Of a stretch of 64,000 nucleotides of DNA, positions 2,939-7,875 are shown piece by piece. The DNA comes from a virus. The DNA is taken from the IMG/VR virus record IMGVR_UViG_3300027969_000074, positions 25,058 through 89,057 of that record. One strand, written 5' to 3'. The notes under the pieces were generated by a model, which was not told the DNA's origin, made no database searches, and saw only the letters and a program-made list of their open reading frames with translations. The position numbers and the translations under genes were made by a program. Numbering within the stretch: the stretch's first letter is position 1; each line of letters starts with the position of its first letter.

Positions 2939-5314
2939 TTATGCAAAATTAAAAGTTTTAGTCCTAAATAAACCTTCATTAGTTGATTTACTTTGAGTCA
3001 ATTTTAATTCAGGAGGATTTGCATTTTTTATTGATTCAATTGCGATTTTTTCAGCAGCGTCTGCTTCTTCTTGAGTAACAGTACCGTCCTTAACTAATTG
3101 TTGCAAACTATCATGTACTCTTGAAGTATCTTCCATATTTAAACTAACCATACCTGTTTCAAAATCAAATACATCAGCAAAGGCTGCTCTAGTTGGAAGA
3201 TCTTGAGAATTTAGTGCATGTTGAGCATCAATTGAATCGTCTAATCCCATTGATCTTAAAATTTGTTTAGTATATTCAGTACTTTTCTTTTCAAACTCGG
3301 CTGCGGCTTTTGGATCATTTGCCATATTCGCAGTACCTCCAAGTAGAGCAGTTGAACCTGGGAAATTAGCACAATGGGCGCCGACCGTTGCTTTAACTAC
3401 GTCAGTTATTAAATTACAATCGGTTTTACCAGCCTTGGCGGTTGCAGTCTTTACGATCTCATCGTTTTTCTTAATTACTGCTTCTACTTCAGAAGAAGCG
3501 GCGGTTTTTTCTGGATTAATAAATTCAGCTTGAGCGGAAGCCGCTTGATTTGCAGCTGCATTATTTGCATCTACTGTAGAATCTCCAGTAGATACTGAAT
3601 CCTCTTCATTTAGAGCTGGCGATAATGCCGAACCTGCCAACTTAGTCGCTGAACTAGTTGCCATTTGCTTAATACACTCCAGGCTTCCATAGCGCTGGTA
3701 TGCAAGTCTTGAAATAAAATTAAGTAGCCTTTTTAGAAATATTCCTCTAGTTGCAAGCGCGCCGCCTGCTTTAGTTAGTTTAGCTAATACATAAACAGTA
3801 TCATCAAAGTTTTTAACACCTTGAATAAAAATTTCAGGTTTTGTTGCCCATGGAGTAAATGCTCTAACCTCAGCTTTTGATAAATTTTTAGCAACCGCTG
3901 GATCAGTCAGCATTGTTTTAAATACTTTGCGAATATCATCAGCCTTTGCGTCTTTTGCAAGTTGAGTAATATATTCGCCACTAGGTTTCCATCCATACTT
4001 ATTTGCAAAATATTCTGCTAATTTTGGATCCTTTTTAACAATTTGATCAATTGCATCAACTGATGCGCCAATTAATTCATTTTCAACCTTTGCCGCTTTT
4101 GCTACTTGTTGTAGAGATTCAGGTTGACCTGCAATTGAGGCCATGAATTTTTTATCTTGTTCAACAGCCTTTAGTAAATCAGCTGAATACCCTCCTTCTT
4201 TTGCATAAGCCGTAATTACAGCTGGATCAAAATCTTTATAGGCAGTTGAATTAAGAATAGCCTTTCCTTGTGGACTAGTTGCAGCATATTCAACTCCCTT
4301 TTTAGAAACTACGGTATCTGCTAATTTATCAGCGCCTTTTGCAATTTCCTTTTTAGTAGTTTCTTCACCTAACAACTTCGCAGCCGTTTCAAAATTACGA
4401 CCAAATATCTTAAGTTGAGCTTCAAGTCCAAGTCTTTCAAATGCCTGTACAGCTTTTACTCCGTATTTTCCAACAATTGGAACTAAATTAAATACTGTTT
4501 TTATAAAATTAGTAACAAATTTAAGTACGCCAACTGCAACTGTTCCAAAAAAGTTAGCAACTCCTTTAAGTAACGAAGCAATTATTCCAGAAATACTCTT
4601 ATCGCCTAGCGTTCTAATTCCGTTCTTTAGTGCAAGAACTGCTGGCCCAACTTCAGTTGCCGAACTTCCAGTCCTGCATAGAATTTTGGTTAATTTTTCA
4701 AGTAGACCAAGAACCGGCTTAGGTAAAAATTTAATAGTTTTTAAGAAATTTGAAGTTTTAGTAACATCGATTGCTGCGATTACGCTAAGTATCATTGATA
4801 CATATTCGCCCTTATATAAAGAAATGATAGCTGATAAGATATTTGCAACTACATCAATTGGAAATCCAGCCCAAGTAAATGGAACAATTCCAATTACATC
4901 TAGTACTAATCTTAGAATATTTAGACCCATTTCGGTTGGATCCGGATCCGCAACTAGGGCTTTTACAAAGTTCATAACTGAACTCATTACGCCTTCGTTA
5001 ATTAATTGGACAGTATGTAGGTATGATTCATTAAGTCGAAGCTTAATTGTATCGTATCCCTGTCTAACCAAAAAGTCCTCCTTTTTGATAATATCGTTAA
5101 TATCTTCAAAATTTTCAAGTAAAAAAACTTGATGCTCAAAGATTTCTTCTTCTGAATGGTTAGGCGTTCTAGGTTTACTTAATTTGCTAAAGTCAACTGC
5201 ATCTAGGGCAGTCCAAAAAGACTCAGGAATACTCTCAAAATATTGAATCAGTTTTTCATTAACTGGTTCAGCTCCGTGATTAAAGTACTGGTCTGCTGAA
5301 ATTACATATCTCAT
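2939..5314 (-). CDS. Large putative virion/ejection protein with pre-toxin-TG-like hydrophobic segment
   Basis: 791 aa; LVLDVIGIVP...IDVVANILSAIISLYKGEYVSMILSVIAAID segment; several [ILV]NE motifs; late motif at 5338-5345. Confidence 0.55.
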   Translation of the reverse strand: MRYVISADQYFNHGAEPVNEKLIQYFESIPESFWTALDAVDFSKLSKPRTPNHSEEEIFEHQVFLLENFEDINDIIKKEDFLVRQGYDTIKLRLNESYLHTVQLINEGVMSSVMNFVKALVADPDPTEMGLNILRLVLDVIGIVPFTWAGFPIDVVANILSAIISLYKGEYVSMILSVIAAIDVTKTSNFLKTIKFLPKPVLGLLEKLTKILCRTGSSATEVGPAVLALKNGIRTLGDKSISGIIASLLKGVANFFGTVAVGVLKFVTNFIKTVFNLVPIVGKYGVKAVQAFERLGLEAQLKIFGRNFETAAKLLGEETTKKEIAKGADKLADTVVSKKGVEYAATSPQGKAILNSTAYKDFDPAVITAYAKEGGYSADLLKAVEQDKKFMASIAGQPESLQQVAKAAKVENELIGASVDAIDQIVKKDPKLAEYFANKYGWKPSGEYITQLAKDAKADDIRKVFKTMLTDPAVAKNLSKAEVRAFTPWATKPEIFIQGVKNFDDTVYVLAKLTKAGGALATRGIFLKRLLNFISRLAYQRYGSLECIKQMATSSATKLAGSALSPALNEEDSVSTGDSTVDANNAAANQAASAQAEFINPEKTAASSEVEAVIKKNDEIVKTATAKAGKTDCNLITDVVKATVGAHCANFPGSTALLGGTANMANDPKAAAEFEKKSTEYTKQILRSMGLDDSIDAQHALNSQDLPTRAAFADVFDFETGMVSLNMEDTSRVHDSLQQLVKDGTVTQEEADAAEKIAIESIKNANPPELKLTQSKSTNEGLFRTKTFNFA

Positions 5315-5360: not shown

Positions 5361-6425
5361 TTAAAGTGAATCCGCAATCTGGCGTAATATTTTAAAATAG
5401 TCACCAGTTGAACAATCTGATAGAAATTTACAAATCTCAAAGAAATCATCAACTGTATCAAACGACATGGCTGGATGAAATCTTGGATCTTTATACGAAA
5501 CTGGAATTGTTCCAAATATAACAGATTCATAAACTCTAGCTGGAATGAACTTTTCTTTTAGATAGAGATCTTTGCTTACATTTATTGAAACTTGAGACAT
5601 TTGCATGTCTACCCAGATTGCTTCACGATTTCCTCTTGGGCAAAGAGCAACCCGGTTCATTGTATCAATCCAGCTTTCTAGCGTTGAGGTACTCTTTGCC
5701 GCAACTGTCATATTAAATGAACTTCCATCAAATTTACAGGTACTATCAATTGCAGAAATAATGTCATTAATTATTGGATTCTTGGAATGACCTTCTTTGT
5801 AATTATCAAATGATAGGTTTCCATAATATATTAAATGATTTAAAACTTTATTTGCATGGGCTTGGTGTACGTCTAAACATGCATTCATAAAGCCTTTACT
5901 ACAACCTGGAATTGTAATTGATGGAATCTCTATAGAAATGCCTAATTCATTTAATTTAACAAGAAACGCATGTGATAATGAAAGATCTGTATCTAATATA
6001 ACAATATCTGCTGCTTCATAACCTGACTCTAGCGCAATATAGATAATGGTTTCAAAATAAGCTGCATCCTTTAATTTCTTTTCAAGTGTGGAAAGATTAC
6101 GGAATCGAGCTTTTAAAAATAATTTTGAATATTCTTTATTTTTAATAGCCTCAAATACTGTGGATTGATGTAATCTATAGTTATCAATTAATTTATCTGC
6201 AAATTGATTAAATACTTTGCCCAATTGATCGTCTGGGAAGCTAGGTCGACTTGCGAGATTAACCATTCCAGTATCTAAATAATTTACAAAATCAAATTTA
6301 TCAATTTCATATTGATTAGCCAATTCATCTAATAAACCTAATTGATAAAATGTGTGTCCTGGAATATTTTCATTAAATATTCCTAGTTCGCCAAAATATG
6401 CATAGAGTGCTTTTTTCTTTTCCAT
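5361..6425 (-). CDS. GT-B fold glycosyltransferase, T4 beta-glucosyltransferase/CgeB-like
   Basis: LIYYGN and SINVSKDLYLKEKFIPARVYESVIFGTIPV resemble the C-terminal nucleotide-sugar-binding lobe of T4 BGT (KNYNDNFITLRVWE, recalled). Confidence 0.6.
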   Translation of the reverse strand: MEKKKALYAYFGELGIFNENIPGHTFYQLGLLDELANQYEIDKFDFVNYLDTGMVNLASRPSFPDDQLGKVFNQFADKLIDNYRLHQSTVFEAIKNKEYSKLFLKARFRNLSTLEKKLKDAAYFETIIYIALESGYEAADIVILDTDLSLSHAFLVKLNELGISIEIPSITIPGCSKGFMNACLDVHQAHANKVLNHLIYYGNLSFDNYKEGHSKNPIINDIISAIDSTCKFDGSSFNMTVAAKSTSTLESWIDTMNRVALCPRGNREAIWVDMQMSQVSINVSKDLYLKEKFIPARVYESVIFGTIPVSYKDPRFHPAMSFDTVDDFFEICKFLSDCSTGDYFKILRQIADSL

Positions 6426-6802
6426 AATACGTATTTTACTAGAACTCCGTCATTTGGTTCTATGTCAAGTCTATTATTGTAAAAAATATCCCAAGAATCT
6501 GCAGCATATTGACCAATTCCATATAGTTCCCTAGGATGTTTCCAATCGCGATCAATCCATTCAGTGCTAAATCGGATTAATGATTTGGCTCGACGATTAT
6601 AAAAACCAAGTGGACGAAGTAGTTCTGCTAATTCTTGAGGATCTGCCTGCGACATCATTGCCGCCGTTGGATACTTATCGAAGAGTTCAGATCTAATTCC
6701 GTCCACTTGTACTCGTCTAGTACAATTTAAGAGAATGCAACAAACTTGAGATTTCCATGGGTCACCATGATAAATCTCTTGAAGTAATTCAAATGGGCTC
6801 AT
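6383..6802 (-). CDS. MBD4-like HhH-GPD DNA glycosylase (stand-alone catalytic domain)
   Basis: SPFELLQE...DPWK...ILLN...FDKYP...ELLRPLG...ELYGIGQYAADS...EPND aligns motif by motif with the MBD4 glycosylase domain, including the catalytic Asp. Confidence 0.88.
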   Translation of the reverse strand: MSPFELLQEIYHGDPWKSQVCCILLNCTRRVQVDGIRSELFDKYPTAAMMSQADPQELAELLRPLGFYNRRAKSLIRFSTEWIDRDWKHPRELYGIGQYAADSWDIFYNNRLDIEPNDGVLVKYVLWKRKKHSMHILAN

Positions 6803-7615
6803 TTACACATTTTTAAAGCCGGCAAAATGAGTAATAAAATGCTTTCCATTTATTGTACGTGGATTAACAAATAATTGCCCAAAGTTTGCTCTAAAAATAT
6901 CAAGGATTTCAGTAAATTTAGCTGAGCGATTTTCCAATAACCAACTATAATGAAAATGGTATTCAACAATAAAAAGTCTGATTTGATCTAGGCTTTCTTG
7001 GTTTAGTGCCTTAATCATATCGTATTCTAATCCTTCAATGTCCATCTTGATGGCTGTGATACCCTTTTCTTTAATAATAGTGTTTATATTCTCAGCAGGT
7101 ACAGTCGTAACCTGACGACCTCTAATGTGATGCACACTGTGCTTTCCAGAGTCTTGAGATAGGTAAAATTCTACTTCAGACGAATCGTCTGCAACAATTG
7201 CCTTTTCAATAATTTCACAACGATCTTGAACGCCATTCATTTGAACATTTTGTTCTAGGAACTCCACGTTATTATGGAAAGGTTCATATGAATAGACTTT
7301 CTTTACTTTTGGAAATTGAGTTAGTAAACGAGTTGCAAAAATACCAATATGGCCTCCTGCGTCTAACCAAGTATCTTCATGATTTAGATCTTCAAGATTT
7401 AATGGACCTCCATTTTGCGCATAGTGCGGTATGAATAGAGGTTTAAAATATTCACCACCCGTAGGTTTAGTTGAAATATTTTGTGATACATTAAATTTGA
7501 TCTCTTCCTCAGACCTAACCAAAAATTGATAATCGTGATATTTGGTTTTCTTTTCAAAAACCTGAAGGGTTCCATTTTGTCGAGCCTCTTCAATCGAGCA
7601 TAATACGTCTGCCAT
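6803..7615 (-). CDS. FkbM-family SAM-dependent methyltransferase
   Basis: WLDAGGHIGIF, VYSYEP, IKMDIEGLE and VEYH motifs. Confidence 0.9.
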   Translation of the reverse strand: MADVLCSIEEARQNGTLQVFEKKTKYHDYQFLVRSEEEIKFNVSQNISTKPTGGEYFKPLFIPHYAQNGGPLNLEDLNHEDTWLDAGGHIGIFATRLLTQFPKVKKVYSYEPFHNNVEFLEQNVQMNGVQDRCEIIEKAIVADDSSEVEFYLSQDSGKHSVHHIRGRQVTTVPAENINTIIKEKGITAIKMDIEGLEYDMIKALNQESLDQIRLFIVEYHFHYSWLLENRSAKFTEILDIFRANFGQLFVNPRTINGKHFITHFAGFKNV

Positions 7616-7650
7616 TTATAAATGTTTATTTAGACTAATTATACTACAGT

Positions 7651-7875
7651 TTATAAGCTTTGGTCTACGTTAACGTCTTTTTGTTTAATTAAAAGTTCGT
7701 CTGGATTTTCAGGATTAGGGCCAGCAGTTTGATAATTGTCATATCGACTAGGCTCAGCCTTTTCAATCTCATCAGATTTGACTGATTGGACTTTATTATC
7801 AGAGCCCATAATCTTATAAGTTTTAGTAATAGGATCAACTCCAATAATTTTGGCAGTATGACCTGATTTTAACAT
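7651..7875 (-). CDS. Small SH3/KOW-like domain; probably the -1-frame extension (7651-7947) of the upstream scaffold-like gene
   Basis: The frame is open upstream to 7962 with no other ATG/GTG/TTG. The SH3-like pattern YITGQEVMLKSGHTAKIIGVD starts before the annotated ATG. Confidence 0.6.
   Translation of the reverse strand: MLKSGHTAKIIGVDPITKTYKIMGSDNKVQSVKSDEIEKAEPSRYDNYQTAGPNPENPDELLIKQKDVNVDQSL

Follow-up and report, generated by a model that had tools for sequence, protein, structure and literature searches.

Why would a phage encode a methyltransferase, a DNA repair glycosylase and a glycosyltransferase back to back? The question is raised by three open reading frames (ORFs) at positions 5361-7615 of a stretch of 64,000 nucleotides (hereafter the window), which covers bases 25058-89057 of one 89,057-bp viral contig, IMG/VR record IMGVR_UViG_3300027969_000074 (CheckV completeness 33%). 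From upstream to downstream, they are:

6803-7615, minus strand: FkbM-family class I S-adenosylmethionine (SAM) methyltransferase, 270 amino acids (aa); PF05050 and TIGR01444

6383-6802, minus strand: DNA glycosylase of the MBD4 type (HhH-GPD), monofunctional, 139 aa; consists of the catalytic domain and is optional

5361-6425, minus strand: orphan GT-B glycosyltransferase, predicted to act on 5-hydroxymethylcytosine (hmC) in DNA, 354 aa; identified from its AlphaFold2 (AF2) fold and gene context

The genes are co-directional and tightly coupled, as the original prediction had stated, with a 0-nt gap between the first two (6802/6803) and a 43-nt overlap between the last two (6383-6425). That prediction took them for a module making a glycosylated and methylated base, accompanied by a dedicated enzyme to repair its deamination. 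Judging from gene content and gene order, we think it probable that an uncultured T4-like jumbo phage from freshwater carries here a cassette for DNA modification, in which the orphan glycosyltransferase (GT) would glycosylate hmC and the optional glycosylase would act in repair. The idea of a modification module gains from the linkage within the cassette, from the T4-type enzymes that replace the GT in sister phages and from the gp42- and gp56-type genes of related phages; it has to be amended in that the GT lies outside the beta-glucosyltransferase (BGT) family and the glycosylase is dispensed with in many phages. Our inferences concern the acceptor, which we take to be hmC in DNA, as well as the sugar, the target of methylation, the substrates of the glycosylase and the presence of gp42- and gp56-type genes in this phage.

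Conservation of the cassette within the clade

About 85 contigs from IMG/VR and metagenomes share the order p647, p512, (p74), FkbM, glycosylase (when present), GT and p791, where the numbered names designate the flanking genes. The contigs with a habitat label all come from freshwater, some reach 250-271 kb, and GT identity across the clade goes from 92% down to 38%. We based the counts for this clade on the 76 IMG/VR loci with upstream coverage. FkbM adjoins the GT in 70 of them (92%). The glycosylase is present in 34 and missing from 42 (55%); two loci (L040 and L048) lack both FkbM and the glycosylase, and in L036, L037 and L080 the GT occurs without an FkbM gene detected in the locus. The proposed linkage of all three genes thus holds for FkbM and the GT, but not for the glycosylase, which is missing even from the closest relatives (FkbM 99% identical, GT 90-92%).

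Where the glycosylase is present, it is found only at this one position. It was found nowhere in the relatives G004 (84% complete) and G009 (70% complete). A 13.9-kb contig of a 2023 lake metagenome (run X5), colinear with the window at ~92% identity, skips exactly positions 6441-6808, and the glycosylase is gone. The gene is therefore a natural presence/absence polymorphism between strains, and it appears to be useful yet dispensable in the clade. The strain of run X5 also differs at 3403-3508, inside p791, where 104 nt are replaced by 110 others, which makes this a small variable cassette.

Replacement of the glycosyltransferase in sister phages

We searched for other occupants of the same slot using a profile of the upstream neighbour p512, and retained the loci with p647-p512 synteny and at least 2.5 kb downstream (n = 71). 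The orphan GT is present in 67 of these syntenic loci, and the other four hold a homolog of one of the T4 DNA glucosyltransferases in its place. In three of them (L253, L268 and L271), this is a PF09198 BGT homolog (34-37 bits for a cut-off of 27) that matches T4 BGT over nearly its full length in tblastn (E 3e-12 to 7e-15). In the fourth (L260), it is a PF11440 homolog of the alpha-glucosyltransferase (AGT), with a score of 112 bits and 30% identity to T4 AGT (E 5e-47). FkbM and the glycosylase are found in none of the four loci. Two other genes were noted there: an ORF resembling a fragment of adenylosuccinate synthetase upstream of the BGT gene (L268:9138-10034) and an SPFH/flotillin protein downstream of it (L253:12607-14127).

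Distant cassettes with the same family of glycosyltransferases

Homologs of the GT outside the clade are 23-34% identical to that of the window and 23-55% to one another, and belong to at least four lineages. They occur in a recurrent cassette made of a P-loop kinase/HAD-like protein, a protein of the uracil-DNA glycosylase (UDG) superfamily, the GT and a thymidylate synthase (TS) homolog with the signature of T4 gp42. The cassette is complete in L187, L189, L197 and L201 and partial in L193, L200, L198 and L195, and L093 has the same parts beside a PolB gene split into two ORFs. The TS homologs keep the T4 gp42 residues D145, C148, D171 and D179. A UDG-superfamily protein is part of the GT cassette in all eight non-clade contigs with upstream coverage; its gene is directly upstream of the GT in seven of them and upstream of the kinase in L093. 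These eight proteins are 28-47% identical to one another and match PF03167 with 35.9 bits in L197 and more weakly in the others; a search of the PDB with the UDG-like protein reached only E 0.1, to family-4 UDGs. Considering the MBD4-type enzymes of the clade and the UDG-type proteins of the distant cassettes, two unrelated glycosylase folds recur beside this family of GTs. The kinase/HAD protein of the distant cassettes has no homolog in the clade genomes. L093 also encodes a TnpB/Cas12f-like gene (L093:12998-14182, minus strand; PF07282, E 3e-18), ~1 kb downstream of the gene with the gp42 signature.

Probable hydroxymethylcytosine pathway genes in relatives

A supply of hmC calls for a dCMP hydroxymethylase elsewhere in the genome, and six relatives (G001-G004, G008 and G009; 46-100% complete by CheckV, three above 90%) carry a second TS-family gene of ~292 aa that fits this role. 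Its best PDB matches, the CMP hydroxymethylase MilA (E 1.5e-23) and T4 dCMP hydroxymethylase (E 4.7e-19), outrank all thymidylate synthases, and the alignment to T4 gp42 shows that D145, C148, D171 and D179 are kept. Among TS homologs, N177D selects dCMP, L143D/E favours hydroxymethyl over methyl and D169N characterises the 5-hydroxy-dCMP synthases (PMC13326640). The combination of N177D, L143D and a retained Asp169 therefore predicts that the second TS homolog is a 5hm-dCMP synthase. The best database homolog of this enzyme (50% identity) is in LR756500.1, an uncultured huge phage of 462 kb that also holds a p647 homolog (30% identity), which links the clade to huge Bacteroidota-type phages.

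The complete relative G001 also encodes a 159-aa homolog of the T4 dCTPase gp56 (39% identity, E 7e-25) and a dCMP deaminase. A weak match to PF08761 was found in G001 and G003 only, and a search for PRA-PH/MazG found none. A search for PF09198 or a canonical BGT in five relatives returned nothing, but the search control also failed to match. The hydroxymethylase signature is thus present in the relatives, but was not found in the phage's own contig, a point to which we return below. This contig encodes a canonical ThyA outside the window (C1:13932-15230 in L001) of 432 aa which, compared with gp42 and the second TS homologs, has internal insertions of ~100 and ~55 columns and a C-terminal extension of ~100 aa.

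The orphan glycosyltransferase

The AF2 model of the third protein (predicted local distance difference test, pLDDT, of 91.4) has the two Rossmann domains of the GT-B fold, and we are confident in assigning it, on this modelled structure, to the GT-B glycosyltransferases. To our knowledge, every phage DNA glycosyltransferase known so far adopts this fold. In VIA-align, the model matches BGluT, TarM, BshA, T4 BGT and T4 AGT with Z scores from 17.2 to 15.0. Foldseek and VIA-align both place it close to T4 BGT (1qkj; Z 16.2, root-mean-square deviation 4.1, 276 aligned residues), and T4 AGT gives Z 15.0; the match to BGT is non-specific, as many GT4-type enzymes tie at Z 16-17.

The resemblance to T4 BGT on which the original prediction relied is therefore found at the level of the fold but not in the sequence. 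The GT has no match in Pfam, PHROG or NCBIfam, ten of its distant homologs gave nothing above threshold in Pfam, and hmmsearch of the family profile against PDB sequences returned no match. With hhalign, the profile matched T4 BGT with a probability of 0.3% and gave no meaningful match to T4 AGT, RB69 gp46 or RB69 gp47. We thus rejected its membership of PF09198/GT63. The family comprises more than 226 homologs, every one of them labelled hypothetical. Language-model neighbours of the GT in the ESM atlas include viral clusters with PF09198 at 0.94-0.95, which we regard as a lead only.

The FkbM methyltransferase

The first protein of the cassette matches PF05050 (49.4 bits for a cut-off of 22.7, E 7.7e-13) and TIGR01444 (77.1 bits for a cut-off of 37.7, E 1.8e-21), with weak Pfam matches to TRM5-TYW2 and TRM. 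Residues D85, G87, H89 and G91, of the glycine-rich SAM loop, are invariant. Its AF2 model (pLDDT 91.9) gave a flat list in the fold search, where the FkbM structure 2py6 (Z 12.8) is tied with Trm5, TYW2 and RlmL (Z 12.4-12.8), so that the fold is uninformative on the substrate. Named enzymes of the FkbM family are O-methyltransferases of hydroxyl groups, classically on sugars or natural products, and by analogy the simplest chemistry would be that this one O-methylates the transferred sugar. A role tied to the product of the GT is suggested by the near-constant adjacency of the two genes and by the absence of FkbM where BGT or AGT replaces the orphan GT.

FkbM is also the most conserved part of the locus: it is 99% identical in relatives where the GT has 90-92% and p791 80-88% identity, and 95% identical where the GT has 60% and p647 67%. 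When words were sampled from an 8.6-kb stretch, around 11% of them came back in many lake metagenomes, a share that may correspond to the FkbM gene, as it is roughly of that size. In the portions of the MetaGPA paper and its supplement available to us, the domains reported as enriched in contigs with modified cytosine did not include FkbM or HhH-GPD.

The MBD4-type glycosylase

The match of the middle protein to the MBD4 catalytic domain along its whole length was confirmed. A phmmer search of the PDB returned 15 MBD4 sequences (E 5e-30 to 6e-28) over query residues 2-133 of 139, and the next family, EndoIII, reached only 7e-3; PF00730 is matched with 38.5 bits (cut-off 26.2). In mouse MBD4, Asp534 is catalytic, and Tyr514 and Gln423 form hydrogen bonds with O2/N3 of the flipped T or 5-hydroxymethyluracil (5hmU) (PMC3458566). 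We placed the positions described in that study on the phmmer alignment, where D534, Y514 and Q423 correspond to D118, Y99 and Q8 of the phage protein and the wedge residue Leu482 to F67. D118, Y99, Q8 and also R30 are invariant in all 35 distinct glycosylase sequences of the clade.

The likeness to mammalian MBD4 (PDB 1NGN, 4EVV and 4EW4; active on T/U/5hmU:G) thus extends to the full catalytic domain, the equivalents of Asp534, Tyr514 and Gln423, and the helix-hairpin-helix (HhH) fold, here without Fe-S cysteines. The phage enzyme differs in having no N-terminal methyl-CpG-binding domain, in two substitutions that we weigh below and in the position of its gene beside a GT. From these residues, it is likely to be active as a mismatch glycosylase specific for pyrimidines, although its DNA-intercalation loop is modified. 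Its nearest homologs in cultured phages are those of the Xp12 group (35-38% identity over ~92% of the length).

The original prediction had also offered the opposite order of events, in which the glycosylase creates the site that the GT modifies. We rejected this order on two grounds: 42 of the 76 loci keep the GT although they have no glycosylase, and the residues with which MBD4 reads T or U are retained. Most economically, the protein can be read as an enzyme dedicated to repairing modified cytosine that has deaminated, at 5hmU-type:G or T:G pairs.

Genomic context of the cassette

Two further features lie immediately upstream of the three genes:

7638-7646, minus strand: TAGTATAAT motif, candidate phage promoter element, 23 nt upstream of the FkbM ATG

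7651-7875, minus strand: p74, small conserved ORF of 74 aa that immediately precedes the motif and FkbM; context only

The single promoter originally proposed for the three genes is present as a motif, but its enrichment is weak. The window has three copies of TAGTATAAT for 0.87 expected, each a short distance before a gene start on the minus strand, and 5 of 100 shuffled windows reach three copies. We therefore regard it as a plausible candidate for a phage promoter element, on the basis of its sequence and position. A generic sigma-70 scan of the window was at background (13 sites for 12.5 expected), as was a terminator scan. The p74 ORF is kept at the same position in relatives, down to ~36% identity, and had no match in Pfam or PHROG.

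The suggestion that the cassette is inserted among head genes is not supported. The flanking p647, p512 and p791 received no family assignment from Pfam and PHROG searches, and p647 had no match in the PDB or the ESM atlas. The only cultured relative of p647 is in Flavobacterium phage MaF61, where it is annotated as hypothetical and lies between baseplate genes. In the complete relative, the T4-type head genes (Gp23 and the S77 prohead protease) are ~100 kb away from the cassette and adjoin DnaB, UvsX, SbcCD and dCMP deaminase. Searches of cultured phages with the region (blastn) and with the GT (tblastn) gave no match, nor did single-protein locus scans with P0150 and P0142.

Elsewhere in the window, positions 35604-60639 hold three giant minus-strand ORFs (2654, 3192 and 2432 aa) with ~46% GC, for ~33% otherwise. 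The long spurious ORFs in their other frames indicate a strongly repetitive coding sequence of biased composition. The contig also encodes the ribosomal protein S21, a protein with a histone-deacetylase domain, a sigma-70 region 2 protein, PhoH, guanylate kinase and NUDIX.

Discussion

In the mechanism that we propose, 5-hydroxymethyl-dC would take the place of dC through the action of two enzymes with genes outside the cassette, a dCTPase of the gp56 type and a dCMP hydroxymethylase of the gp42 type. Once the DNA is replicated, the orphan GT-B enzyme, in place of the alpha- or beta-glucosyltransferase of T4, would move a sugar from a nucleotide-sugar donor to the hydroxymethyl group in DNA. 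FkbM, which travels with the GT, would probably tailor the product; the simplest possibility is that it O-methylates the sugar. In the phages that have it, the MBD4-type glycosylase would flip out and excise T/U/5hmU-type pyrimidines opposite G, the deamination products of (modified) cytosine, and the base-excision repair of the phage or the host would then restore the modified C. The genome supplies functions for the steps downstream: UvdE, Fpg/Nei and an ATP-dependent DNA ligase are all encoded on the contig, an unusually rich repair set for a phage.

Several observations weigh against this reading. All 24 public runs with this DNA are assembled Logan contigs, and the modification is predicted here from gene content and gene order. 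The phage's own contig holds only the canonical ThyA, of the Asn type (PFNIA at the dUMP-specifying position), and gp42- and gp56-type genes, inferred from the relatives, were not found in the 33% of the genome that it represents. In the clade, the cassette is surrounded by unassigned genes and occupies the late-gene strand, whose distance from the genes of nucleotide metabolism is large at this point. The GT has no detectable sequence relation to any characterised DNA glycosyltransferase, and the fold matches of FkbM do not discriminate sugar from nucleic-acid methyltransferases. A literature search combining FkbM with hydroxymethylcytosine and phage gave no precedent for an FkbM enzyme acting on a DNA-linked sugar. 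In the glycosylase, the Arg442 finger of MBD4 is replaced by Cys27 (Cys in 32 of the 35 sequences) and the base-stacking Lys536 by Val120 (Val in all 35); the invariant R30, three residues past Cys27, may stand in for the Arg finger, as far as the alignment can tell.

Some of these observations would suit a cassette whose GT and FkbM modify a virion protein or glycan, e.g., a structural protein encoded nearby or the giant Gly-X-Y fibres, which are rich in Ser/Thr, with the glycosylase as an unrelated passenger. The cassette is indeed set between the conserved p647, p512 and p791, which are unassigned but may be structural, and its strand is also that of the terminase and baseplate genes. The genome has many other GTs and methyltransferases beside fibres of 2,400-3,200 aa, a further point against a role in DNA, and FkbM enzymes classically O-methylate sugars or natural products. 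The GT is also acidic (pI, the isoelectric point, of 5.3), but so is T4 AGT, and net charge and pI fail to separate DNA-binding from other GTs. The distant homologs of the GT adjoin hydroxymethylases with the gp42 signature, nucleotide kinases, UDG-like glycosylases and PolB, not structural genes, and sister phages have T4-type DNA glucosyltransferases in the very same slot. Since a virion target leaves both the linkage of the cassette and the replacement in the slot unexplained, we hold it to be quite improbable. We also judge it unlikely that the GT modifies DNA while the MBD4-like gene is an independent moron for general T:G/U:G repair. Such a gene could well be polymorphic between strains ~92% identical, missing from the closest relatives and absent from G004 and G009, and the phage has other stand-alone repair genes (UvdE, Fpg/Nei and the ligase). 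Yet the glycosylase always occupies one position, translationally coupled to the GT, a non-homologous glycosylase of the UDG superfamily accompanies the GT in eight of eight unrelated cassettes, and its nearest homologs in cultured phages are in genomes fully substituted with 5-methylcytosine (5mC).

The target of FkbM leaves more room for alternatives. It is possible, if doubtful, that the enzyme acts elsewhere than on the transferred sugar. Its target could be a protein, a base in nucleic acid, the donor of the sugar or the 5-hydroxymethyl oxygen, and in this last case some of the sites would become methoxymethyl-C. This would accord with the tie between 2py6 and tRNA/rRNA methyltransferases and with the weak TRM5-TYW2 and TRM matches, with a conservation well above that of the GT, which is odd for a tailoring enzyme, and with the three loci that keep the GT but have no detected FkbM (L036, L037 and L080) and the two (L040 and L048) that lack both FkbM and the glycosylase. 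On the other hand, FkbM adjoins the GT in 92% of the loci and is absent where BGT or AGT sits, as expected if it needs the product of the GT, and the named members of its family O-methylate hydroxyl groups.

The modification cassette that we favour can be compared with known systems. It has much in common with the glucosyl-hmC system of T4: a T4-like background (T4-type terminase, gp15, Gp23 and S77 protease), a gp42-signature enzyme and a gp56 homolog in the relatives, a GT-B enzyme at the position taken by PF09198 or PF11440 genes in sister phages, and distant GT homologs that adjoin a hydroxymethylase as the T4 b-gt gene adjoins gene 42. In contrast with T4, the GT of the clade has no sequence similarity to BGT or AGT, and the clade adds FkbM and, in about half of the phages, a mismatch glycosylase, neither of which is present in the b-gt/42 and a-gt regions of T4. 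RB69, DLP3 and RL38J1 have clusters of a kinase, a GT and a TS homolog, and make glycosylated 5-hydroxycytosine (PMC13326640). The distant cassettes resemble them in having a nucleotide kinase and a GT-B enzyme beside a dCMP-specific TS homolog, with a DNA polymerase nearby. They differ from them because their TS homologs keep Asp169, as in hydroxymethylases, instead of the D169N of 5-hydroxy-dCMP synthases, because no similarity between the GT and RB69 gp46/47 was detected and because a UDG-like or MBD4-like glycosylase is added. In the phages of the Xp12 group, every C is modified, with 5mC throughout the genome (PMC7653180). These fully C-modified genomes carry the closest cultured-phage homologs of the glycosylase, but they make 5mC, not hmC, and no partner GT or FkbM was noted for these homologs, although the genes around them were not inspected.

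Glycosylation of hmC in phage DNA is a known anti-restriction strategy. Most likely, the strategy is here the known one of T4, and what is undescribed is the enzyme family, a GT-B glycosyltransferase with a companion methyltransferase and an optional glycosylase. We put forward only tentatively a more specific view, in which the virion DNA of the clade may carry O-methylated glycosyl-hydroxymethylcytosine and phages that hypermodify cytosine may recurrently recruit their own mismatch glycosylase, of the MBD4 or UDG type, as host repair would fail on the deaminated base. An O-methylated glycosyl-hmC, put in place by this GT-B family together with FkbM, would be a type of hypermodification not yet described.

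If our reading is true, the presence of two unrelated glycosylase folds beside the GT suggests that a hypermodified genome creates a specific need for repair, that of deaminated modified cytosine; a parallel in animals is the action of MBD4, TDG and SMUG1 on 5hmU. Strains that naturally have or lack the glycosylase would offer ready-made comparisons. It would also follow that a new family of glycosyltransferases serves DNA hypermodification in a large clade of jumbo phages found in lakes across the globe. The chemistry of phage anti-restriction and the tools for DNA labelling would then gain a candidate enzyme and, possibly, a methylated sugar-base that is new to both.

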